A DNA stretch of 64,000 nucleotides from Gammaproteobacteria bacterium (GTDB taxonomy: Bacteria; Pseudomonadota; Gammaproteobacteria; Pseudomonadales; Azotimanducaceae): contig JAPOYI010000114.1 in NCBI GenBank assembly GCA_026706665.1, positions 7,268-71,267 of the forward strand. Direction: 5' to 3'. A program made the translations under genes and the position numbers. This document shows positions 6,503 to 55,433 of the stretch, one piece after another. Position 1 is the stretch's first letter. The number at the start of each line of letters is the position of its first letter. A model generated the notes under the pieces. The model worked only from the letters and a program-made list of their open reading frames with translations, searched no databases and had not been told where the DNA came from.

Positions 6503-7117
6503 CTACTCGAAATGCGCCAGCGGCAGGAACTCCTCGAAAGTCAGCCGAAGGCCTTCAACTGCGGTGGAGACGATCTCCTCCGCCCAGGCCACGGTCCGGG
6601 AATGGCCATAGCGGCCGGAAGACGGTGCCCTGTAGATCGTGACCTGCTTCTTTCCCACATCGACCAGCCACACTTCGGCGACGCCGGCGGCAGCGTAGCG
6701 CGGGACCTTTTGCTCGCGGTCAAAGTCGAGCGACGAGTCGGCTACTTCGATCGCTAACAGGGTGTCGGCCGGCCTCGGGTGGCGCAGCAGGTAGTGGCGA
6801 GGATCAGGCTTCACGACCGCCAGATCGGGTTCCGGCTGGGTGTGATTCGATAGCCGCACGGATGACTGGACACGCAGCTTCGCCGCATCGCCCAGGCGCA
6901 AGAACAGGATCTCGGCCAGCCGGTTCACGATGCCCGTGTGCGCGGGGCCCATTGGCGGCATTTCGATGAGCTCCCCATCGATGAGCTCCACGCGGTCGTC
7001 GGCTGTCAGGATTCCCGCCGAACACATTTGATCGAAATCATCGGCGGTCAGGCGACGGCGAACTGGTTTGGCGACCAATGGCGTTTCCTGGAGAGTTGGC
7101 CGAGGCGTCGCGATCAT
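6503..7117 (-). CDS. Uma2 family (DUF820) putative endonuclease
   Basis: ELIDGELIEMPPMGPAHT, PEPDLAVV and LAIEVADSS..D...K...YAAAGVAEVWLVD match the Uma2 PD-(D/E)xK pattern. ATG 7117 (MIATPRP) is preferred over the maximal ORF start at 7240. Confidence 0.75.
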   Translation of the reverse strand: MIATPRPTLQETPLVAKPVRRRLTADDFDQMCSAGILTADDRVELIDGELIEMPPMGPAHTGIVNRLAEILFLRLGDAAKLRVQSSVRLSNHTQPEPDLAVVKPDPRHYLLRHPRPADTLLAIEVADSSLDFDREQKVPRYAAAGVAEVWLVDVGKKQVTIYRAPSSGRYGHSRTVAWAEEIVSTAVEGLRLTFEEFLPLAHFE

Positions 7118-7268
7118 AGCAAATCCGCCGTGCTTTCCTCGTGCGTCTGCCGCACGACCGGGCGCAGTACCTGTACATCGTGGGCCGTCGATGCGATGTA
7201 GCACATCGACGGCAATTCGCGTGGGAGATCGTCCGATCATGACGGTGGTCGCCCGAACCGGATGCGAA

Positions 7269-8366
7269 TCAGCTCTTCGGCTGGAGCGGTCCGGCGGCCG
7301 GGTCCCTGCGCGGGTCGAAAGCGTCGCGCACCGCCTCTCCGGTGAAGATCAGGAGCGTCAGCATGGTCGCGAGCGTGAAGAACGTGGTCATGACCAGCCA
7401 GGGCGCGTGGATGTTGGCCCGGCCCTGCGCCAGCAGGCGGCCGAGCGACGGCGAGTCCGACGGCAGGCCGAAGCCCAGGAAATCGAGCGACGTGAGCACG
7501 GTGATCGACCCGGTCAGGATGAAGGGCAGGAAGGTGATGGTCGCCACCATGGCGTTCGGGAGCACGTGCCGGACCATGATCCTGGGGTCGCTGACGCCAA
7601 GCGCCCGGGCGGCATCGATGTACTGGAAGTTCCGCGCGCGGAGGAACTCCGCCCGCACGACCGCCACGAGGGCCATCCAGCTGAAGGCGACGAGAATCCC
7701 CAGCAGCCAGAACACGTTGGACTCGACGATACTCGCGAGGATGATGAGTATGAACAGCACTGGAAGCCCCGCCCAGATCTCGACGAACCGCTGGGCGAAG
7801 AGGTCGATCTTGCCCCCGAAATAACCCTGGACGCCGCCGGCGCACACGCCGATGATCGAGCTCAGGAACGTCAGGACCAGGCCGAACAGGAACGACAGCC
7901 GGGCGCCGTAGATGAGGGAAGCGAGTACGTCCTTGCCGACGTTGTCGGTCCCCAGATAGTGCTCCTTCGATGGCGGATAGGGGGCGGTGCCGGGCAGGTA
8001 GTAGTCGATGGTGTCATAGCTGAATTCAATCGGCGGCCAGAGCCACCAGCCGCCCTTGTCGTAGATGAGATCCTTGACGAAGTCCTCCTTGTAGTCTGCC
8101 TCGACCTTGAACACACCACCGAACTCCGTCTCGGCGTACTTCTTGAAGATCGGGAAGTAGAAGCGGTCCTCGTAGTAGATCACCAGCGGCTTGTCGTTGG
8201 CGATGAACTCCGCGAAGAGCGTAAAGATGAACAGCGCGAGGAATATGCGAAGCGACCAGTACCCGCGCTTGTTGGCGCGGAAATTCGCCCACCTGCGCCT
8301 GGTGAGGGGACTGGCTTGCCAGCGTTGGGGGGCATCGGCGCCCGCCGCGATAGTTGCTTCACCCAC
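7269..8366 (-). CDS. yejE: ABC transporter permease, YejE-like (peptide/microcin C type)
   Basis: N-terminal RRWANFRANKRGYWSL, a long periplasmic loop, HYLGTDNVGKDV and the BPD permease core. Confidence 0.8.
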   Translation of the reverse strand: MGEATIAAGADAPQRWQASPLTRRRWANFRANKRGYWSLRIFLALFIFTLFAEFIANDKPLVIYYEDRFYFPIFKKYAETEFGGVFKVEADYKEDFVKDLIYDKGGWWLWPPIEFSYDTIDYYLPGTAPYPPSKEHYLGTDNVGKDVLASLIYGARLSFLFGLVLTFLSSIIGVCAGGVQGYFGGKIDLFAQRFVEIWAGLPVLFILIILASIVESNVFWLLGILVAFSWMALVAVVRAEFLRARNFQYIDAARALGVSDPRIMVRHVLPNAMVATITFLPFILTGSITVLTSLDFLGFGLPSDSPSLGRLLAQGRANIHAPWLVMTTFFTLATMLTLLIFTGEAVRDAFDPRRDPAAGPLQPKS

Positions 8367-8368
8367 GG

Positions 8369-9490
8369 CTACGTTCCCCTCGTCTCGAAGTCTATTCGGG
8401 GATCCACGAACGTGTAGACGAGGTCGGCGATAAGCTGCGTCACGAGGCCGAGCAGGGTGAACACGAAGAGCGTGCCGAACACGATCGGGTAGTCCCGCGA
8501 CATGATGGCCTCGAATCCAAGCAGGCCTATGCCCCGGAGCGAGAAGATGACCTCGATCAGGATGCCGCCGGTAAAGAGTATGCCGAGCAATGCCGCCGGG
8601 AAACCGGCGATGACGATGAGCATGGCGTTACGGAATACGTGGCCGTAAAGCACGCGTGCCGGTGTCATGCCCTTCGACCTGGCGGTGAGAACATACTGCT
8701 TGTTGATCTCGTCCAGGAAAGAGTTCTTGGTCAGCATGGTTAGCGTTGCGAAACTCCCGAAGGTGAGGGCGGCGACGGGCATGGCGAGGTGATGGAGCCG
8801 GTCCTTGACCTGATCCCAGAACGTGAGCTCCGAGTAGTTGTCCGATATCAGTCCGCGTAATGGGAACCAGTCGAAGTATTCGCCGCCGCAGAACAGGATG
8901 ATGAGCAGCATTGCCAGGATGAACGCCGGGATCGCGTAGCCGACGAGGATCACGACGCTGGTCCAGACATCGAACGGCGTGCCGTCGGAGACCGCCTTGC
9001 GTATGCCGAGCGGCAGCGAAATCGTGTAGGTGATGAGCAGCGCCGAGATACCCAGCGACAGCGACACGGGCAACCGCTCTATCACGAGGTCGACCACCGG
9101 AACGTCCTGGTAGAAGCTGTCGCCGAAGTCGAACGAGAAGTAGTCCCGCAGCATGTTGAAGAAGCGGACGTGCGCCGGCTTGTCGAAGCCGAACTGTTTT
9201 TCCAGTTCCTTGATGAGTTCCGGGTCGATCCCCCGCGCGAACTCGTAGCTGCTCGGGTTGCCCGCTTCCATGCCGCCGGGAGCGCCGCCTCCGCCGCCGA
9301 TCATGGCGGTTGCGGCCACGCCCTCGCCCTGCAGCCGGGCGATGGCCTGGTCGACCGGGCCTCCGGGCGCCGCCTGGATGATGACGAAGTTCACCAGCAT
9401 GATGCCGATCAGGGTCGGCAGCATCAGCGCGAGCCTGCGGGTGATGTAGGACGAGGCGATCCTGATCGCGAATTGCCGGACTTTCTGCAT
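8369..9490 (-). CDS. yejB: ABC transporter permease, YejB-like
   Basis: SYITRRLALMLPTLIGIMLVNFVIIQAAPGGPV and the permease core. There is a 2-nt gap to the downstream permease gene. Confidence 0.8.
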   Translation of the reverse strand: MQKVRQFAIRIASSYITRRLALMLPTLIGIMLVNFVIIQAAPGGPVDQAIARLQGEGVAATAMIGGGGGAPGGMEAGNPSSYEFARGIDPELIKELEKQFGFDKPAHVRFFNMLRDYFSFDFGDSFYQDVPVVDLVIERLPVSLSLGISALLITYTISLPLGIRKAVSDGTPFDVWTSVVILVGYAIPAFILAMLLIILFCGGEYFDWFPLRGLISDNYSELTFWDQVKDRLHHLAMPVAALTFGSFATLTMLTKNSFLDEINKQYVLTARSKGMTPARVLYGHVFRNAMLIVIAGFPAALLGILFTGGILIEVIFSLRGIGLLGFEAIMSRDYPIVFGTLFVFTLLGLVTQLIADLVYTFVDPRIDFETRGT

Positions 9491-9508: not shown

Positions 9509-11389
9509 CTAGTTGTCCTGCTGGTTGCCCTTTATGCCGGCGAGCCCGGCATCCACCCGGGCGCTCTTCTCCTCGTCCAGCCACCACAATATGGGGAAGC
9601 CGGTCCAGTTCATGTGCTCCGCTCCGAGGGGTGGATGGCCGAACCGGTCCCAGTATACGAGATGGCGCCCGACCGGATGCCCTTCCGGTATGACATGGAA
9701 GTTCCAGAGCAACACGCGATCCAGTGCCCGTCCGGCGGCGTTCATGTCCGCTTCCGTCGTGGCCTGGATGATTTTCTCCACCAGGAAGTCCACCACCGGG
9801 TCCTTGATTCCCGCGTAGTTGGTCATGTTCGGCTGGTCGGCGTTTCGCGAAATGAACTGGCTGCGAAGCCGCGCCGGAATGGGAACCCGGAACGTATAGA
9901 ACTTTCGCATGGTCGCGTCGTAGTCATAGTTTCGCAGCCGATTCACCATCAGGTTGCTTTCGATTCGGCGCAGGACCGCATCTATCCCCAGGCGCTCGAG
10001 GTTGTCGACGAACGGCGTCAGCATGCGTTCGTATTCCTCCGTGGAGATGATGAATTCGAAGCGAAAGGGTTCTCCCGTCTTTTCGTTGACGCGTTTGAGG
10101 TCCCGGACTATCCAGCCTGCTTCGACGAGCAGCGCGTCGGCCTTGAGCAGCGTGTCGCGGTTGCGTCCGAAAAGGCCGTTCCTGGGCAGCGGCACGGGAT
10201 GCGTGAAGACCCGCTCGGGCACCTGGTCCCGAAACGGTTCCAGGAGCGCGAGTTCCGCCGCTAACGGCAAGCCCCGCGCCTGCAGTCCGGATCGCATGAA
10301 GTAGCTGTTGTTGCGGTCCATGCCCTCATGCCAATAGACGCGGTTCGCCCACTCGAAGTTGTAGGCCAGTGTCAGGGCTTCCCGAACCCGGATGTCCTTG
10401 AAGAGGTCCCGGCGATTGTTGAGAACGACGCACTGGTGCATGCCGTATGCCGTCCCCATGACATGGGTCTCCCTCTTGAACAGCCCCTTGTGATAGCCGG
10501 TGAAGTCGTAGGCCGTCGCGAAGGTGCTTTCGTTCTGGTCGCGGTAGTAGTCGATGACGCCTGCCCTGAGTGCCTGCAGCATGACGTTCTGGTCGAAAAA
10601 GTAGGTGATCACCACGCGGTCGAAGTTGTAGTGACCGACGCTCACGTTGAGGTCCCTGCCCCAATAGTCCTCGATGCGTTTGAAGACCAGCTTGTGTCCG
10701 GGGTCCACCTCGGCGAGGCGATAGGGCCCGTTGCCGAGGGGAGGCTCCAGCGTCGTGGCGCCGAACTTCCGGTCTTCCCAGTAGTGCCGGGGCAGCGGCG
10801 TGAACCCGGCCGTGAGGATTACCAGTTGCGGGTTCTTTTCGGCGGCCTCGCTGAAACGAAACGTGAAGGACCTCGGTCCGGTCCGCTCCAGGTCGGCGAC
10901 GTCGCGGTAAAGCTCTCTCCAACCGACTGACGCTTCGGCCCTGATCATTTCGAACGTCCACAGGACGTCGTCCACGGTCACCGGTTGGCCGTCGTGCCAG
11001 TAGGCGCCTTCCCGCAGCGTGTAGGCCACCCAACTGTAGTCGTCGGCGACGTCCACGGATTCGGCGAGCTTGCCGTAGTAGGAGGCGAGTTCGTCTTCCG
11101 CCTTCAGCATGAGTGGTTCGTAGATCGGTGTCCCCAGCCTCGGGTCGAGGTAGGCCGCGACCACGCCCTTGTCGACATAGGCGTGCACGTTGTTGAACGT
11201 GCCGACGATGGGCATCGTGACGGATCCGCCTTTCGGTGCATCCGGGTTCGCGTAGTCGAAGCGCGGCATGTCGCTCGGGTACTTCGGGTCGCCGAAATAG
11301 GCGAAGCCGTGGCTCGGCTCCGCCGCGACTCCGGGGGCGGGAACGAGCATCAGGAAACACGCAAGAAAACGCAGTGCCAGTGACGCCAC
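9509..11389 (-). CDS. yejA: extracellular solute-binding protein family 5, YejA-like (paralogue 1)
   Basis: Signal peptide, then EPSHGFAYFGDPKYP and YANPDAPKGG. The roughly 620-aa size is typical of YejA. Confidence 0.8.
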   Translation of the reverse strand: MASLALRFLACFLMLVPAPGVAAEPSHGFAYFGDPKYPSDMPRFDYANPDAPKGGSVTMPIVGTFNNVHAYVDKGVVAAYLDPRLGTPIYEPLMLKAEDELASYYGKLAESVDVADDYSWVAYTLREGAYWHDGQPVTVDDVLWTFEMIRAEASVGWRELYRDVADLERTGPRSFTFRFSEAAEKNPQLVILTAGFTPLPRHYWEDRKFGATTLEPPLGNGPYRLAEVDPGHKLVFKRIEDYWGRDLNVSVGHYNFDRVVITYFFDQNVMLQALRAGVIDYYRDQNESTFATAYDFTGYHKGLFKRETHVMGTAYGMHQCVVLNNRRDLFKDIRVREALTLAYNFEWANRVYWHEGMDRNNSYFMRSGLQARGLPLAAELALLEPFRDQVPERVFTHPVPLPRNGLFGRNRDTLLKADALLVEAGWIVRDLKRVNEKTGEPFRFEFIISTEEYERMLTPFVDNLERLGIDAVLRRIESNLMVNRLRNYDYDATMRKFYTFRVPIPARLRSQFISRNADQPNMTNYAGIKDPVVDFLVEKIIQATTEADMNAAGRALDRVLLWNFHVIPEGHPVGRHLVYWDRFGHPPLGAEHMNWTGFPILWWLDEEKSARVDAGLAGIKGNQQDN

Positions 11390-11400
11390 TTCGTCGATTC

Positions 11401-13266
11401 CTAGTCTCCCCGCATCCCGGCCAGGTAGTTCTCCACGCGGGCGTTTTTTTCATCGTCGAGCCACCACAGCTGCGGGAAACCGGTCCAGTTCATGTTCTCC
11501 CGGCCCATGGGGGGGTGGCCGAAGCGGTCCCAGTACACGGGGTGGCGGCCGAGCGGACATCCCTCGGGAATCACGTAGAAGTTCCAGAGCAACACGCGGT
11601 CGAGCGCGCGTCCGGCGGTGTTCATTTCCGCCTCCGTCTTGGCGCCCAGCACCATTTCCACCAGCATGTCCACCACGGGATTCTTGATGCCGGGCAGGTT
11701 GGTCTGGTTCGGTGTATCGGCCCATTGTGACGTGTATGTTCTCCGCATGCGGTCCGGGATCGGGACCATGAACGTATAGAGTTTGCGGATCGTCGAATCG
11801 AAGTCGTAGTTCCGCAACCGGTTGGTCATGACATTGCTTTCGAGCTTGCGCAGCACCGCGTCAATCCCCAAGCGCTTGAGGTTGTCGACGAAGGGCACCA
11901 GCATGCGCTCATGAAGGGTGATCCTGACGATGAACTCCAGCGCGAGCGGCTCTCCCGTCTTCGCGTTGACGCGCTCGAAATCCCTGACGACCCAGCCCGC
12001 ATCGCTGAGTAGCGCGTCGGCCCGGAGGAGCGTATCGCGGTTGCGCCCCCATGATTCGTTCTGGGGCAGCTCCACGGGGTGCGTGAATACCCGTTCCGGT
12101 ACCTGGCCGCGAAACGGTTCCAGGATCTCGAGCTCCTCCTCTGACGGCAGTCCCCGTGCCTGCATCCCCGAACGCATGAAATAGCTGTCGTTGCGTTCGA
12201 GGCCGTTGAACCAGTAGACGCGGTTCGCCCAATCGAAGTTGTAGGCCAGCGTCAGGGCCTCCCTGATCCGAGGGTCCTTGAACAGGTCGCGGCGGGTATT
12301 GAAGACGACGCTCTCGTGCATGCCGTAGGAATAGCCCATTCGGTAGGTCTCCCTCTTGAAGACCCCCTTGTGATAGGCGTCGAAGTCGTAGGCCGTGTGA
12401 AAGTGGCTTTCGTCTTCTTCGAAAAAGAAGTCCACGAAACCCGCTCTCATCGCCTGGAGCATCACGTTCCGGTCAAAGTAATACGTGTACACGATGCGTT
12501 CGAAATTGTGGTGGCCCACATTGACATTGAGATCCTTGCCCCAGTAGTCCTCGACGCGTTCAAAGACCACCTTGTGTCCGGCCTCCACCTCCGCAAGGCG
12601 GTACGGCCCGTTGCCGAGGGGCGGCTCGAGGGTTGTGGCGGTGAAGTCCCGCTCCTCCCAGTAGTGTTGGGGCAGCGTGGTGAACCGGGCGGTGAGAACG
12701 ACAAGGGGCGGGCCCCATTCCACGTTCTCGTCTTCGACGAAATGGATCCTGAACGACCGCGGACCGGTCCGCTCTATCCTGTCGAAGGGTTGGTAGCGCG
12801 CCTTCCAGCTGTGCCCCGCCTCGGTCTTCACCATCTTGAAGGTCCACAGAACGTCGTCGACTGTCACCGGCTCGCCGTCATGCCAGTAAGCGTTGTCGCG
12901 CAGCGTGTACTCGACCCAACCGTAGTCGTCGGCGACCTCTACGCTTTCGGCAAGCAGGCCGTAGTAGGAAGCCAGTTCGTCCTCGGACCACCGCATGAGC
13001 TGGTCGTAGACCCTTGAGCCCAGCCTGGTGTCCATGAAGGGCGTAAGGTTCCCCTTGTCGACGTAGGCATGCACGTTGTTGAAGTTCCCGACGATGGACA
13101 GGTGGAGGTCGCCGCCTTTCGGGGCGCCCGGATTCGCATAGTCGAAGTGGAGCATGTCCTTCGGGTACTTCAGTTCGCCGAAATACGCGAAGCCGTGGCT
13201 CGGCTCTCCCGACGCAAGGGTCGCGGCGAGTACAAGGAGCAGTGTGGCAATGAAGCGCGCGCGCAT
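11401..13266 (-). CDS. yejA: extracellular solute-binding protein family 5, YejA-like (paralogue 2)
   Basis: Collinear with the neighbouring paralogue over its whole length (EPSHGFAYFGELKYP, YANPGAPKGG, GFPQLWWLDDEK versus GFPILWWLDEEK). Confidence 0.8.
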   Translation of the reverse strand: MRARFIATLLLVLAATLASGEPSHGFAYFGELKYPKDMLHFDYANPGAPKGGDLHLSIVGNFNNVHAYVDKGNLTPFMDTRLGSRVYDQLMRWSEDELASYYGLLAESVEVADDYGWVEYTLRDNAYWHDGEPVTVDDVLWTFKMVKTEAGHSWKARYQPFDRIERTGPRSFRIHFVEDENVEWGPPLVVLTARFTTLPQHYWEERDFTATTLEPPLGNGPYRLAEVEAGHKVVFERVEDYWGKDLNVNVGHHNFERIVYTYYFDRNVMLQAMRAGFVDFFFEEDESHFHTAYDFDAYHKGVFKRETYRMGYSYGMHESVVFNTRRDLFKDPRIREALTLAYNFDWANRVYWFNGLERNDSYFMRSGMQARGLPSEEELEILEPFRGQVPERVFTHPVELPQNESWGRNRDTLLRADALLSDAGWVVRDFERVNAKTGEPLALEFIVRITLHERMLVPFVDNLKRLGIDAVLRKLESNVMTNRLRNYDFDSTIRKLYTFMVPIPDRMRRTYTSQWADTPNQTNLPGIKNPVVDMLVEMVLGAKTEAEMNTAGRALDRVLLWNFYVIPEGCPLGRHPVYWDRFGHPPMGRENMNWTGFPQLWWLDDEKNARVENYLAGMRGD

Positions 13267-27525: not shown

Positions 27526-28653
27526 TCAGGAGGGGGCCGCGAACTCTTCGCGGATCGCGGCTCCCTGCGCGTCGAGTTCGGCGACGTGGAGTGTCCCGGG
27601 CGTTTCGAGCGCCGCATTCGGATGCGCCGGCATTGAAATGTCACCGGTAGCGCTGGCCATGGTCCAGCGTCTTAGCGCGGGATGGGTCGAGAGATCCGCC
27701 AGCGAGTTGACATTGCCATAGGCGATGCGGGCGCTGCGCAACCTCGTTTCGAGGTCGAGTTTCGAATGCGCCGCGAAGAATGCGCCGACGATGCCGTCCA
27801 CCTCTTCGCGCCGCGCGACGCGTTCCTTGTTGGTCGCGAACCGCGGGTCCCGCGCCAGTTCGGTTCGGCCCATGACCTGTTCCGCCAGGTCGCGCCATTC
27901 CCGGTCATTCTGAACGCAGATGACCAGGGTCGTACCGTCGCGCGTCTCGAAACCGCCGTAGGGCGCGATGGATGGATGCGCCAGTCCCACGCGGCGCGGC
28001 CCGGAGCCCGTGTAGTCGTGCTGCAAAAGCGGGACCGCCATCCAGTCCGCGATAACGTCGAACAGCGACAGCTTCACTCCCCTGGCGATGCCGGTGCGCT
28101 CGCGTTCGAGGAGCGCTTCCGTCACGGCGAGGGCCGCGGACACGCCGGTTGCGATATCGCAGATCGATACGCCGACGCGGCCGTAATCGCCGGGAGCCCC
28201 CGACACGGACACGAGCCCGGATTCGGCTTGTACCAGCAGGTCGTAGGCCTTCATGCCGGAGTACGTCCCATGTTCCCCGTACCCGGAGATGTCGCAGGTG
28301 ACCAACCTCGGATAGCGTTCCGGCAGCGCGTCGGACCCCAGACCCGATCTGGCGGCGGCGCCGACGGCCAGGTTCTGTATGAACACGTCGGCCTTGGCGA
28401 GGATGCGGTGGATGAGAGCCCGGTCCGTCTCGCTCTTGATGTCCACGACGAGGGATTCCTTGCCGCGGTTCAACCAGGCGAAATAGGCGGACTGCCCGTT
28501 GGCATTGTCATCGTACTTGCGGGCGAAGTCTCCTTCGGCCCGTTCCAGCTTGATGACACGTGCCCCCGCGTCGGCCAGGCGACACGACGCCATGGGTCCG
28601 GCGACGGCCTGCTCCAGCGCGACGACAAGAAAGCCTGAGAGGGGTTGCGACAT
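27526..28653 (-). CDS. family III CoA-transferase (CaiB/BaiF)
   Basis: MSQPLSGFLVVALEQAVAGPMASCRLADAGARVIKLE, the typical N-terminus, and a full-length family III fold. ATG 28653 is preferred over 28686. Confidence 0.85.
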   Translation of the reverse strand: MSQPLSGFLVVALEQAVAGPMASCRLADAGARVIKLERAEGDFARKYDDNANGQSAYFAWLNRGKESLVVDIKSETDRALIHRILAKADVFIQNLAVGAAARSGLGSDALPERYPRLVTCDISGYGEHGTYSGMKAYDLLVQAESGLVSVSGAPGDYGRVGVSICDIATGVSAALAVTEALLERERTGIARGVKLSLFDVIADWMAVPLLQHDYTGSGPRRVGLAHPSIAPYGGFETRDGTTLVICVQNDREWRDLAEQVMGRTELARDPRFATNKERVARREEVDGIVGAFFAAHSKLDLETRLRSARIAYGNVNSLADLSTHPALRRWTMASATGDISMPAHPNAALETPGTLHVAELDAQGAAIREEFAAPS

Positions 28654-28707
28654 GAGTGTCCCTGGTCGTTGCGTCGCCGGATTCAACCCAACGCGGCAGG
28701 TGTCAGG

Positions 28708-48070: not shown

Positions 48071-49120
48071 ATGGTCAGTGTTGCAGACGACAACATCCGC
48101 GAAGTTCCCGACGACCCATTGGCGGCCATCGACTACTGCTACGAGCAAGGCTGGACGGATGGCCTGCCGGTCGTGCCGCCGGAAGCGAGCCGGGTCGAGG
48201 CCATGATGGCCATGGAAGGCAGACCTCCCGAGACCGTACTCGCGCATCACCCCGCGACGGGACTGGAACTGACCATTCAGGCTGCGGCGGTCAATGCGGT
48301 CATGGCCGGCTGCCTGCCCGAGTACTTTCCTGTCATCGTGGCGGCGTTCGAGGCGATGGACCGCGAACCGTTCAACTTTCACGCGAGCTCGGTGAGCACG
48401 GGCGGCTCGGGCCACCTGCTCATCGTCAGCGGACCCATAGTGGAAGAGATCGGGATGAACGCGGACGCGAACCTCTTCGGCCCGGGAAATCGCGCCAATG
48501 CCACCATCGGCCGCACCGTGCGGCTGACGCTCCTCAATGTGTTCCGCACGGTACCGGGTCTGGCCGACAAGTCCACGCAGGGACATCCCGGCAAGTACAG
48601 CTTCTGCATCGCCGAGCGGACGGACAGGAACCCGTGGCCCCCGCTATGCGAAGAGCTTGGCTATCCCGAAGGCGTGAGCTCGGTGACTGTGTTCGCGGGA
48701 GCCGGCTTCCTGAACGTGGAGAACCACGGCGGCAACACGCCGGAAGCCATCCTGGAGACGATGGCCGACGCCATGGCGAACTACGGCTGCGTCACCACGG
48801 GCCAGAGCGTGGTGGTGATCTGTCCGGAACATGTCGAGATCATCGCCCGTGCCGGCTGGACGAAAGTGATGGTGCGCGAGTACCTCTTCGAGTATGCGCG
48901 GCGGCCGCGGGGCGGCATGGAGCGGATCGGAAAGTTCGTTCTTCGAGAATACGCGCGGCAGGGGAGACAGGACTTTCACCGTGGACTCTCGCCCGACGAC
49001 ATCCTGGTCACCGTGGGTGGCGGTGACGGGGGTGGCCATTCGGCGTTCATCCCCTCCTGGAGCCGGGGCAGGGGCTCCGTCATGCAAAGTCAGCCCATCG
49101 GGGTGTGCATCGACTGCTGA
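48071..49120 (+). CDS. conserved hypothetical protein
   Basis: Coding-looking 349-aa ORF with a GWTDGLPVVPPE motif and SVSTGGSGHLLIVSGP. I cannot name the family. Confidence 0.6.
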   Translation: MVSVADDNIREVPDDPLAAIDYCYEQGWTDGLPVVPPEASRVEAMMAMEGRPPETVLAHHPATGLELTIQAAAVNAVMAGCLPEYFPVIVAAFEAMDREPFNFHASSVSTGGSGHLLIVSGPIVEEIGMNADANLFGPGNRANATIGRTVRLTLLNVFRTVPGLADKSTQGHPGKYSFCIAERTDRNPWPPLCEELGYPEGVSSVTVFAGAGFLNVENHGGNTPEAILETMADAMANYGCVTTGQSVVVICPEHVEIIARAGWTKVMVREYLFEYARRPRGGMERIGKFVLREYARQGRQDFHRGLSPDDILVTVGGGDGGGHSAFIPSWSRGRGSVMQSQPIGVCIDC

Positions 49121-49163
49121 CAATCCAGTGTCGAGTCCCGCAGGGGTCGGTTTCGCCGTCACG

Positions 49164-49682
49164 TCATTCCGTGAGGATGCTGATCGCCCGCTCCGACGCC
49201 GAAGCGGCTCGTTGCCTGATCTCGCTCACAGTACAACTGCCCAGCGGATGATCGACGATCACGAAGGGATAGTCGGGAAGGCCCAGCATCCGGGCCATGT
49301 TCTTGGCGGTAACCTCGAACGGTGTCGTACAGAGAACGACTGCCCGCTTGCCGGTCTGCTCAAAGGTGATGCCGTCATGCAAACTGCACGTCGAGCAACT
49401 GCCTCAGTCACCGGACGCGGTGATCAGGTAGTCGCACGCCTCTGAGAGATTCTTCAGCGTATCCGCCGGGGCAGGTGCACCGGCGCTGCCTTTCGCCACG
49501 ATGGGCAGGATCTCACCCCCGAAACGGGTCCGCAGCATCGCGGCGGTTTCCTCGAGCAGGGCATCCGCGTTGAGCTTGGTGTTGGACAGCAGGCCAATCG
49601 TCAGCCCGTCCAGGCTGGCGAGCGCTGGCGCCCGCCGGGATTCCCGCGCGGGGGCGGCAACGGTGGGGTCGACCAGCTTCAT
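49164..49682 (-). CDS. UGSC-motif selenoprotein with in-frame UGA (Sec)
   Basis: ORF 49404..49682 (ending ...DYLITASGD then TGA at 49404..49406) and ORF 49164..49382 are in the same frame. Read through, the junction is GD-U-GSCSTCSLHDGITFEQ. This gives a 172-codon protein with a U-G-S-C motif. A hairpin at 49376..49390 lies 13 nt 3' of the UGA. Confidence 0.7.
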
Positions 49683-49869
49683 CTCTTCTCCTTGCGTGTT
49701 CCTGCACGGCTCAGGCCCATGTTACAGCCGGATTTGGACCGGTGGTATGCTGATTCCGAATCGTCGATAAGGATGGCAACCGTCCCGCCATGCTGGCCTC
49801 GCAGACGGGCAAGCCGACGATCAGCGTCGATCATGACGTGTATCCCGCTTCGCTGCTTCAAGGACTTGG

Positions 49870-51090
49870 ATGAAGACGCAGGCTGATTCAGTGACCAATG
49901 CAACGCCACCTCTGGACGGCGTGAAGATCCTCGATTTCTCCCGCATCATCGCGGGTCCGCTCGCAACCCAGCAACTCGCCGACCTGGGGGCCACGATCAT
50001 CAAGATCGAGAATCCCGCGACCGGCGATGACGTGCGCGGACTCGACGAGGACGGGCAGCCGGCGCGCAGCCCCTTCTTCATGGGGTTCAACCGCAACAAG
50101 AAGAGCGTCGCCATCGACCTCAAGAACCCGACCGGCCAGCGGATGGCGCTCGACCTTGCGCGCCAGTGCGATGTCCTGGTGCAGAACTTCCGCCCGGGCG
50201 TGATGGATCGGTTCGGACTCGACCACGAACGCGTCATGTCCATCTGTCCGAAGCTCATCTACGTCTCGATTTCGGCGTACGGCGAGCACGGCTCGATGAG
50301 TGACCGGCCCGGGTACGACCCCGTGCTGCAGGCGGAGTCCGGCATGATGGCGATGACCGGCGAACCTGATGGGCGGCCGATGCGGACCGCGCTGTCGCTC
50401 ATCGACACGCTGACCGCGGGACACGCGACGAGCGCCGTCTGCGCTGCTTTGATCGCGCGCGAAAAGACCGGTCGGGGCGACTACCTGGATCTCGCGTTGA
50501 TGGACACGGCGATCGCCGCGCTCGGCAACATGGCCATGGCGTGGCTCGGCATGGGCGTCGTTCCGGAGCGCGTGGGGAACAGGCACATCTATGCCACGCC
50601 GAACGGGCTCTTCCGCACGGCGACGGACCCGATCTACATGGCCATCGCCTCCAACCGGCTGTTTACCCGTTTTTGCGAGAACGTCATCGAGCGGCCGGAC
50701 CTCCCGCGCGACGAGCGGTTCGCCAAGCCGCCCGACCGGCTGAAGAACCGGGAGCTGCTCTGGGAGATTCTCGAAGGCGAACTGATGAAACAGCCGGCGG
50801 AACACTGGATTCCACGCATGCGGGACCTGCCCGCCGGCCAGGTGCGCACCGTGGACAAGGCGCTGGCCTCGCCCGAGGTCGCCGAACGCGGCATGGTCCG
50901 GACACTCGAAGAAGCCGACGGGAACACCATTTCGCTACTGGCGCCGCCTTTCCGCTACCAGAACACCCCGCTCGCGGCGCCGGAGTCACCACCGTACATC
51001 GGCGAGCACACCGACGAGGTCTTGCGCGAGTGGTTGGGTATTGACGAAGCGAAGCTCAAGGATTTGCACGAGCGTCGCGTGATTCGCTAG
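49870..51090 (+). CDS. family III CoA-transferase (CaiB/BaiF)
   Basis: LDGVKILDFSRIIAGPLATQQLADLGATIIKIE and a full-length family III pattern. Confidence 0.85.
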   Translation: MKTQADSVTNATPPLDGVKILDFSRIIAGPLATQQLADLGATIIKIENPATGDDVRGLDEDGQPARSPFFMGFNRNKKSVAIDLKNPTGQRMALDLARQCDVLVQNFRPGVMDRFGLDHERVMSICPKLIYVSISAYGEHGSMSDRPGYDPVLQAESGMMAMTGEPDGRPMRTALSLIDTLTAGHATSAVCAALIAREKTGRGDYLDLALMDTAIAALGNMAMAWLGMGVVPERVGNRHIYATPNGLFRTATDPIYMAIASNRLFTRFCENVIERPDLPRDERFAKPPDRLKNRELLWEILEGELMKQPAEHWIPRMRDLPAGQVRTVDKALASPEVAERGMVRTLEEADGNTISLLAPPFRYQNTPLAAPESPPYIGEHTDEVLREWLGIDEAKLKDLHERRVIR

Positions 51091-51148: not shown

Positions 51149-51897
51149 CTATTCCTGTGACCACCGGACGCGCTCTGCGACAAACCGCGCAAAGGCTTCA
51201 ATTTCCTGATCGACGCTTGCTGCCTCAAGCGCGGAAAGATAGGCGTTCCGGTCTTCGAGGCGGATGACCGTCCGCGGATAGCCCCCGGAGGCCAGCGTTG
51301 CATTCATGACAAAACGCGCCATGCGTCCGTTGCCGCCGGGATAGGGATGGACGTAGCCGAACAGCCAATGCCCGAGCACGGCGCGTACCGCCGGTTCGGT
51401 TTCCTGTTCCAGCAGTTCGAACAGCGCAGGCATGGCATCGCGTATGGCTTGCCAGCGCGGCGGAACATGACGCGAGCCGCGAAGATAGACGGCGTCGTTG
51501 CGATAGCCTGCGAGTGCGAAGGCGGGGATCATGCCGACCGCCACGGAGGGTTGGAACAGCTCGCGATACCAGTCGGAGTGCGCGGCCCGGACGCTGTATT
51601 GAAAGGGTCGCTCTCGCGCACATCGTAGCCGGCGACTTTCATGGTGCGGACTATCTCGTCGGCGACATCCCCCCGTCCGACTCGCCGAAAGGCCCCGGCG
51701 AGTCGGCCAGCGATGGCGGAATGGCCTCCGTCAAGGAGACGGGCGAGCAGGTTGGAGGCATCCCGAATCTCGGACAGGACAACCTGCGCTTCCACCGGGC
51801 ACCGGGCGAAGAAGGATTCAGGGACCCTTGTCAGCGCGGCTTCGGGGGCGAACAGCCGTAGCCCCTCGTGTTCGGTGATATCGGCTGCAGGTGGCAT
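51149..51897 (-). pseudogene. Fic family gene with internal deletion and frameshift
   Basis: The C-terminal frame reads HSDWYRELFQPSVAVGMIPAFALAGYRNDAVYLRGSRHVPP...HPYPGGNGRMARFVMN (Fic motif HPFxxGNGR). The N-terminal frame (...LAGAFRRVGRGDVADEIVRTMKVAGYDVRESDPF) joins it near 51600 in a different frame, and about 125 aa of the expected central region are absent. Confidence 0.6.
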
Positions 51898-55136: not shown

Positions 55137-55433
55137 ATGGACAGATATCCCTTTTCCGGCCTCAAGGTCCTGGACGTGGCGACGGTCGTTGCCGGCCCCG
55201 CCGCAGCCGTGATGCTGGCCGACTTCGGCGCCGATATCATCAAGGTCGAGAAGCCGGGAACCGGCGACATCATGCGGCAGGTCGGACGCACCACCATGCC
55301 CGGGGCCGACTCCGACTACATGTGGAACCTTGAGGGGCGTAACAAGCGCGGCATCGTCCTCGACCTGAAGCAGGAGGCGGGCATGGGCGATCACCCTACG
55401 GGCATCGAGCTGTACGCGAGTATCGCGATCTGA
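55137..55433 (+). pseudogene. truncated family III CoA-transferase (N-terminal about 85 aa only)
   Basis: FSGLKVLDVATVVAGPAAAVMLADFGADIIKVEKPGTGD...NKRGIVLDLK matches the family N-terminus, then diverges and stops after 98 codons, against about 400 expected. Confidence 0.6.

Follow-up and report, generated by a model that had tools for sequence, protein, structure and literature searches.

A recoded UGSC-family selenoprotein gene and its conserved partner gene in an Azotimanducaceae contig

Two short open reading frames that share one frame and are parted by a single TGA raise the question of whether that codon ends one gene or is read as selenocysteine (Sec) inside a longer one, and, if the latter, with which other protein the Sec residue does its work. 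Such a pair lies on the minus strand of a 64,000-nucleotide (nt) stretch from an Azotimanducaceae bacterium (assembly GCA_026706665.1, contig JAPOYI010000114.1, positions 7,268 to 71,267), here called the window, where the two halves together form a UGSC-family selenoprotein gene beside a 349-residue gene that lacks a family model. The best explanation of the whole, held with moderate confidence, is that the UGSC gene encodes Sec, that it forms a two-gene unit with its neighbor, and that its product serves a two-component reductase as its (seleno)thiol subunit.

The UGA codon and the hairpin behind it

The TGA at 49404-49406 is the sole break between the minus-strand reading frames 49404..49682 (92 amino acids) and 49164..49382 (72 amino acids plus upstream codons), as an initial annotation of this DNA had stated and as the sequence and the list of reading frames confirm. 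Translation across it yields 172 residues (...EACDYLITASGD-U-GSCSTCSLHDGITFEQTGKRAVV...), and the gene at 49164..49682 on the minus strand accordingly has 172 codons and a stop, with Sec as codon 93 and the Sec-Gly-Ser-Cys motif in place (...DYLITASGD-U-GSCSTCSLHDGITF...). With Cys written for Sec, the product matches the Pfam model PF24696 'UGSC family' over residues 3-171 (E 7.5e-52; 176.4 bits, cut-off 25) and passes the NCBIfam model NF041046 'UGSC family (seleno)protein' (126.4 bits, cut-off 125). In alignments the [U/C]-G-S-C motif occupies a conserved position, the UGA column holds the Cys of homologues, and the extended motif UGSCSTC (UxxCxxC) is present in the window protein and in all 81 close relatives. 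The family had been named in the initial annotation, and the two curated models and the literature agree with that assignment: UGSC proteins were first seen in marine metagenomes and are still uncharacterized (PMC2398784, PMC1976440, PMC13188914), and are described as 'likely' thioredoxin-like and sometimes fused to an 'Unknown_1' domain (PMC2398784, PMC1976440, PMC9312934, PMC13188914). The window gene is an ordinary member of this already described family.

A genome scan with a single-protein query, limited to one genome per species, gave 80 loci in Pseudomonadales (Ca. Azotimanducaceae), Reyranella, Hyphomicrobiaceae, Dehalococcoidia, Ca. Entotheonella and others. In these and in one related ENA contig, 81 close relatives from several phyla, the aligned codon is TGA without exception, and the same is true of the active-site codon in 68 of 68 metagenome copies found through the partner gene; the actinobacterial-type locus L001 has TGC there. 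The window itself corresponds to scaffold_404 of ENA ERZ23496111. Both halves of the gene align to single, continuous Cys-containing proteins, and the coding sequence is conserved on either side of the UGA. These comparisons show the gene running from 49682 to 49164 to be a real and intact member of the family.

Database homologues are of three kinds: full-length Cys proteins (..GDCGSCS..), proteins that end exactly at ..ASGD, and proteins with Trp at the Sec position, which we take to be TGA rendered as Trp by the gene caller. Public calls for Sec-type UGSC genes are wrong in each of the corresponding ways, being split into 92- and 72-residue products, ended at ..ASGD or given Trp at the Sec codon (e.g., P0001, P0002 and P0009; L002 at 11560-12078; L083 at 11334-11612). 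A profile search of the full database returned 4,193 cluster representatives at E <= 1e-3, and because standard gene callers split almost every natural copy while all 68 metagenome copies use TGA, the Sec form is strongly under-represented in protein databases. One metagenome locus (L132, Ga0075421_100013252) carries two distinct Sec-type copies (UGSCTSWS and UGSCSSGS) around one partner gene.

The hairpin CGUGCA-GUU-UGCAUG, previously noted 13 nt past the UGA, was located at 49390..49376 on the minus strand. It has a stem of 6 base pairs (bp), CGUGCA/UGCAUG, and an apical loop GUU; it spans +16 to +30 relative to the UGA, and the loop begins 19 nt after it. A bacterial Sec insertion sequence (SECIS) element is a hairpin some 16-37 nt from the UGA with G or U in its apical loop, and this hairpin has both the spacing and the loop. 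Among 63 distinct close sequences all six stem pairs are formed in 100%, with one pair occurring as GC (38), GU (24) or AU (1), and RNAalifold independently predicts the same helix. When 75 conserved degenerate codons were compared in 79 distinct genes, synonymous variation was zero only at Thr98 (ACG), Cys99 (TGC) and Ser100 (AGT, for a six-fold degenerate residue), which are the codons of the 5' arm and loop of the hairpin; Leu101 is TTG or CTG only, and all flanking synonymous sites are polymorphic. More distant metagenome subfamilies differ in the peptide after Sec (SSGSVLD, TSWSVHD and SAASVAD among others) and re-form the hairpin, in unchanged register, from different bases. Stem pairing reaches 99% in a set of 117 distinct sequences (116 loci), as against 9-66% with the 3' arm slid, compensatory changes occur at four of the six pairs (GC/GU/AU/CG; UA/GU/AU/GC; GC/CG; CG/GC/UG/UA), and the loop reads G-U-N in all 117. 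A lower stem beneath the 6-bp core is 39-82% paired and not conserved, and a search of the window gave no Rfam family match. Because of the frozen synonymous sites, the compensatory changes and the constant GUN loop, the comparative evidence shows the hairpin at 49376..49390 to be a bacterial SECIS, conserved at the RNA level.

It could still be argued that TGA 49404-49406 is a true stop or an error, leaving two small genes or a pseudogene. Gene callers do report separate 92- and 72-residue products; within the 64-kb window neither selA, selB, selC or selD nor tRNA-Sec was found, and ARAGORN detected no tRNA. The hairpin is also thermodynamically ordinary (z +0.61 over 86 nt and -0.89 over 43 nt), so that its support is evolutionary: since the thermodynamic tests are not significant, the evidence for a SECIS was taken from the comparative data. 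These observations weigh against recoding. The true-stop reading is at odds, however, with a TGA at exactly the same codon in every genome relative and metagenome copy, with coding conservation on both sides of it, with continuous Cys homologues, with the conserved SECIS-like hairpin and with a second TGA-containing gene in the window, and is effectively refuted; we give it almost no weight. Because the TGA is conserved, the Cys homologues are continuous and the hairpin is conserved, the UGSC gene is, as judged from its relatives, a genuine Sec-encoding gene with a recoded UGA, read as the U of UGSCSTC.

The second gene is SelW-like, of the CxxU type, and lies at 26865..27086 on the minus strand with its UGA at 27054-27056 (..ITYCTS-U-GYKPKAVSL..). 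Its product would read M/L-DISITYCTS-U-GYKPKAVSLAAKIKEAFG..., of which gene callers report only a 54-residue reading frame. Fifteen nt after the UGA stands a 7-bp hairpin with a GUU apical loop, resembling that of the UGSC SECIS. The gene offers independent, indirect support for the decoding of UGA as Sec in the source organism. At a distance of 22.3 kb from the UGSC gene it agrees with the earlier count of two Sec genes within 23 kb; the selenoprotein-rich genome then suggested does not follow, since a pair of such genes in 64 kb shows that Sec is decoded and does not establish richness. A crude scan for further in-frame UGA genes, based on G+C content at third codon positions (GC3), returned the UGSC gene only, and the SelW-like gene was found by reading short reading frames.

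The partner gene and the conserved pair

Convergent with the UGSC gene lies the partner gene, at 48071..49120 on the plus strand, which encodes 349 amino acids with a GWTDGLPVVPP motif from the ATG used by homologues; on the other side a family III CoA-transferase gene is divergent from UGSC, both as originally described. The partner has more than 7,267 homologues and no Pfam or NCBIfam match at E <= 0.1, and scans to E <= 10 over 42 and 17 diverse members gave only scattered weak matches to these models.

By tblastn all 82 UGSC loci that were fetched, and the window as well, have a partner homologue beside UGSC (83 of 83). In 71 of these loci (L012-L082) the partner lies upstream of UGSC and on its strand, in most cases directly next to it; the window's own clade (L002-L011, UGSC identity at least 80%) has it inverted to the convergent arrangement, with the CoA-transferase divergent; and in Cys-type actinobacterial loci (L001, L085-L087, L089-L091) the order is UGSC then partner, the genes overlapping or nearly adjacent. 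Further Cys-type loci carry the pair in six cases of six. The reciprocal test used 80 metagenome loci anchored on the partner (39-82% partner identity) and found UGSC adjacent on the same strand in 71, or 71 of the 72 that could be evaluated: eight of the nine exceptions are sequences that break off no more than 350 nt from the 3' end of the partner, which leaves L141 (SDBU01062541.1) as the only real one. At that locus, the sole evaluable partner with no detectable UGSC in the 787 nt upstream and 1,663 nt downstream that are covered, the gene may be a stand-alone partner or the locus rearranged.

The two genes are also fused, in 10 of the 150 best UGSC family representatives. It is very likely that this is what the 2008 paper described as a fusion to 'Unknown_1'. 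A search for a conserved third gene found no family in more than 15 of the 83 loci. Gene order across these loci shows UGSC and the 349-residue gene to be a conserved two-gene unit in Pseudomonadota, Chloroflexota, Actinomycetota and others. The three-gene neighborhood whose conservation had been proposed for checking thus reduces to two genes, the CoA-transferase neighbor being limited to the window's clade and two unrelated loci. Within that clade some relatives have an extra small gene between partner and UGSC, annotated in L002 only, as a DUF1330 gene (136 amino acids, 11092-11502), and in L005 and L006 the gap between the two is about 500-600 nt, compared with 43-170 nt; the convergent arrangement tolerates insertions.

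Alignment of 18 diverse partners reveals invariant D30, G31, P33, T110, G121, P122, G139, R141, N143, R148, D166, E182, W189, P252-E253-H254 and S324, and among these 18 no invariant Cys. From these residues the partner is a probable substrate-binding or catalytic subunit, and it looks like a protein that handles an anionic substrate. As it has no invariant Cys, redox chemistry would therefore be supplied by UGSC and its relay. A sequence-profile search of the PDB found no credible relative of the partner, and matches to SelD and HypE (E > 0.2 on a low-confidence AlphaFold2 model) and to the Toblerone fold were rejected as noise.

Predicted fold, redox context and proposed function

The fold was approached through an AlphaFold2 model of the Cys homologue P0004, which is 42% identical to the window protein. 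The model (predicted local distance difference test score, pLDDT, 89.9) has the order b-a-b-a-b-a-b-a-b-a, with CGSC at the helix 3 N-terminus, and its best Foldseek matches are lumazine synthase, RpiB, PTS-IIB and FMN reductases (template-modeling score, TM, 0.3-0.5; E ~5e-4), with no thioredoxin fold in the top 50. UGSC is thus predicted to be a small flavodoxin/Rossmann-like module, a doubly wound a/b domain with U-x-x-C at the N-terminus of helix 3, and the published guess of a thioredoxin-like fold is not supported by the model. A UGSC profile search against the PDB found nothing.

A likeness to the Sec-bearing part of GrdB and PrdB emerged from several comparisons. An alignment of 113 UGSC sequences, set by hhalign against the PrdB-like selenoproteins of Dataset S1 from the GOS (Global Ocean Sampling) study, gave a probability of 79.7% and P 1.5e-5 with no secondary-structure scoring, and placed Sec on Sec and resolving Cys on Cys, with the ExxG(I/V)PxV and PLG segments aligned; controls gave P 0.44 (reversed sequences) and 0.077 (partner). 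Five of nine diverse UGSC domains have weak matches (E 2e-4 to 0.12; 11-20 bits, cut-offs 65-800), and these five, which come from fusion proteins, all fall on the C-terminal 70-100 positions (~327-424 of 431) in the models for GrdB, 'various selenoprotein B' and GrdF (TIGR01917, TIGR01918 and NF040794). The UxxCxxC motif reported for GrdB/F/H (PMC6778437, PMC13188914) is present in the window protein as U-G-S-C-S-T-C. UGSC does not match PF07355, the N-terminal GRDB domain, and falls outside the GrdB and PrdB family models. The N-terminal parts of the GOS PrdB-like proteins do match PF07355 above its cut-off, and since that model (347 positions) ends just before Sec, UGSC never cross-matches it; we suspect that its seed sequences were cut at the UGA. 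Since hhalign gave the partner only P 0.25-0.39 against PrdB-like proteins and against UGSC, a composition of GrdB from one partner-like and one UGSC-like domain was rejected. Taken together, these concordant though uniformly sub-threshold signals suggest that UGSC probably shares ancestry with the GrdB/PrdB Sec module, and by analogy we treat it as working like that module, not as a member of the family.

Fusions and neighbors of UGSC all point to thiol-redox chemistry. In the window the partner ends in a Cys-Ile-Asp-Cys tail (49106..49117, plus strand), a possible redox-relay CxxC whose cysteines, C357 and C360, are nearly invariant in the window's Sec-type clade. Elsewhere UGSC is fused to a NifU-like CxxC domain (P0337, PF01106 E 2e-8; more weakly in several other proteins), and in P0301 UGSC and partner domains come after an N-terminal segment whose NifU match is weak and sub-threshold (E 0.008). 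The partners of L086 and L089 carry a C-terminal CPDC extension that is NifU-like by eye, and in L001 and L090 a separate protein of 81-84 amino acids with CA(E/D)CL(A/V)PK follows the pair, again NifU-like by eye, for which Pfam gave no significant match. Most loci lack the NifU-like domain, and so does the window, where there is only the CxDC tail. In P0281 (502 amino acids) UGSC is joined to a Pyr_redox_2 domain that resembles thioredoxin reductase and has a CGTC motif. In L090 (Pimelobacter simplex, 6884-8800) genes for thioredoxin (WCGPC) and thioredoxin reductase stand directly upstream of the UGSC-partner operon, which the small CADC protein, NifU-like by eye, accompanies.

UGSC and its partner probably form a two-part redox enzyme. 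In the proposed mechanism UGSC would serve a two-component reductase as its dedicated (seleno)thiol subunit, and its selenolate would attack or reduce a substrate held by the partner, whose invariant polar set is D30, T110, R141, N143, R148, D166, E182, E253, H254 and S324. The resolving Cys of UxxC would then form a selenenylsulfide, to be re-reduced by a thiol relay (the partner's CxDC tail here, the NifU-like CxxC domain elsewhere), with a thioredoxin/thioredoxin-reductase-type system as the ultimate reductant. Sec may act either as a covalent nucleophile, as in PrdB, or as an electron donor only.

A number of findings weigh against this model. Nucleophilic catalysis fits the data no better than a purely electron-donating UGSC with a thioredoxin-like function. 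The similarity to GrdB and PrdB spans only ~70-120 residues and lies far below curated cut-offs, and the hhalign result lacks secondary-structure scoring. The partner shows no likeness to GrdE/PrdA, to any Grd or Prd model or to the PrdB-like N-terminal region, and a pyruvoyl group or cofactor in it is not supported by the analysis; its AlphaFold2 model (pLDDT 66) has no significant structural neighbor (best Foldseek E 0.24). Beyond the pair, moreover, gene contexts are heterogeneous across lineages.

Three other accounts of the function compete with the two-component reductase. UGSC might be a free-standing general thiol-disulfide oxidoreductase of thioredoxin-like fold, which was the guess of the 2008 GOS paper, and its neighbor would be irrelevant. 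The UxxC redox motif and the existing fusion to thioredoxin reductase would suit such a protein, but the predicted fold is flavodoxin/Rossmann-like, and the presence of the partner in every fetched UGSC locus and in nearly all evaluable partner-anchored loci, together with its repeated fusion, is an obligate pairing unexpected for a general redox carrier; we regard this account as improbable. Nor do we think it likely, if marginally easier to entertain, that UGSC, partner and NifU-like domain form a system for sulfur/selenium or Fe-S cluster trafficking and not a small-molecule reductase. NifU-like CxxC domains do occur in fusion with UGSC or with the partner, or as products of a neighboring gene, and Foldseek matched the partner model best, though not significantly, to selenophosphate synthetases and HypE. 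Yet most loci do without the domain, the matches have a TM of ~0.14 on a model of low confidence, the partner has no invariant Cys, and the loci lie among catabolic genes under IclR-type regulators, not among genes of Fe-S or selenium metabolism.

The remaining account takes up the divergent CoA-transferase, from which an acyl-CoA-linked redox role had been hinted: UGSC would work with it in an acyl-CoA-linked redox step. The gene, at 49870..51090 on the plus strand, matches PF02515 over 1-366 of 366 positions (E 7.1e-117) and falls below every NCBIfam equivalog cut-off. It adjoins UGSC in the window and its ten close relatives (L002-L011) only; in L060 and L077 the pair has unrelated paralogues nearby, and the Cys-type pairs of L001 and L085 have AMP-binding CoA ligases and acyl-CoA dehydrogenases in their vicinity. 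Set against these associations, 69 of the 71 loci with the ancestral partner-then-UGSC order have no CoA-transferase within 6 kb, and conservation across the 83 loci extends to no third gene family. Further family III paralogues or fragments lie elsewhere in the window, at 27526..28686 (minus strand) and ~55149..55382 (plus strand), with 34% and 42% identity to the gene at 49870..51090, and one of the two adjoins the SelW-like gene; such paralogues being common in the window, the adjacency to UGSC carries less functional meaning. The CoA-transferase is a clade-specific neighbor outside the conserved module, the hint of an acyl-CoA role is weak and lineage-specific in its support, and we give this account little credence. 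The two-component reductase is the reading retained.

Beyond the pair, gene contexts are catabolic, with organic acids, aromatics, CoA esters and amines as themes. The window's clade has the family III CoA-transferase, a Rieske oxygenase, DAO and an aldo-keto reductase; Actinomycetota have IclR regulators, an IlvD/Edd-family dehydratase, an FAD oxidoreductase and an NMT1-type ABC transporter, as well as LigAB, a CoA ligase, Amidohydro_2 and an acyl-CoA dehydrogenase. Directly downstream from the CoA-transferase gene lie a Fic-domain gene and a small upstream reading frame (~51149..51544 on the minus strand of the window; 13079-13893 in L083), possibly a toxin-antitoxin-like pair. In L002 the matching region holds DUF2779, WYL/WCX and AAA-ATPase genes instead, a variable island beside conserved genes. 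A scan of the intergenic regions for promoters and terminators was uninformative.

By itself the UGSC gene is routine, its family having been catalogued since 2005-2008, and the value added lies in its context. The orphan family becomes testable through an obligate partner (large, and without a Pfam model), a redox relay and a candidate link to GrdB/PrdB. By-products of interest are the unannotated partner family, the conserved minimal SECIS, a corrected predicted fold and the GrdB/PrdB-like two-component model. A bolder proposal, offered tentatively and in our view doubtful as it stands, is that UGSC and the GWTDGLPVVPP protein constitute a widespread, previously unrecognized two-subunit selenoenzyme of bacteria from sea and soil that do not ferment amino acids, with a Sec module kin to those of the glycine, betaine and proline reductases, carrying out thioredoxin-driven reductive cleavage of a small organic substrate. 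If this proposal is true, one of the ocean's most abundant 'orphan' selenoprotein families would gain a mechanism and a catalytic partner.

Comparison with known systems

Compared with the UGSC family as described (PF24696; NF041046; the 'UGSC-containing protein' of Zhang & Gladyshev), the window gene differs in nothing essential: it shares the full-length match, the U-G-S-C motif, the interchange of Sec and Cys and the abundance in aquatic metagenomes. Its clade stands apart in the inverted, convergent partner, which elsewhere is directly upstream, and in carrying the extended UGSCSTC motif. The hairpin, like bacterial SECIS elements of the E. coli fdhF type and the bSECISearch model, sits just downstream of the UGA within the reading frame and has an invariant G-U in its loop; it differs from them in its very short 6-bp core and 3-nt loop and in having no evident conserved bulged U.

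With thioredoxin-fold selenoproteins of UxxC or CxxU type (thioredoxin-, peroxiredoxin- and SelW-like), UGSC has in common a Sec/Cys pair spaced by two residues at a helix N-terminus and an occasional fusion to a thioredoxin-reductase-like flavoprotein, whereas its predicted flavodoxin/Rossmann-like fold and its obligate, dedicated partner set it apart. A further parallel is with GrdB/F/H and PrdB. In both, Sec follows a beta-strand in U-x-x-C(-x-x-C) and is succeeded by a helix, ExxG(I/V)PxV and HPLG or PLG; GrdB/F/H and PrdB are, and UGSC by its pairing would be, one subunit of a multi-subunit enzyme; and both are tied to the thioredoxin system, on the UGSC side by thioredoxin and thioredoxin reductase genes or fusions, and in glycine reductase by the reduction of GrdA by thioredoxin (PMC13188914). 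UGSC is the smaller protein, at ~170 residues without the ~330-residue PF07355 N-terminal domain, and its partner has no detectable kinship to the pyruvoyl proproteins GrdE and PrdA. The hosts differ as well: Grd and Prd were characterized in amino-acid-fermenting clostridia (PMC13188914), whereas UGSC relatives belong to Pseudomonadales, Reyranella, Hyphomicrobiaceae, Dehalococcoidia and Actinomycetota.

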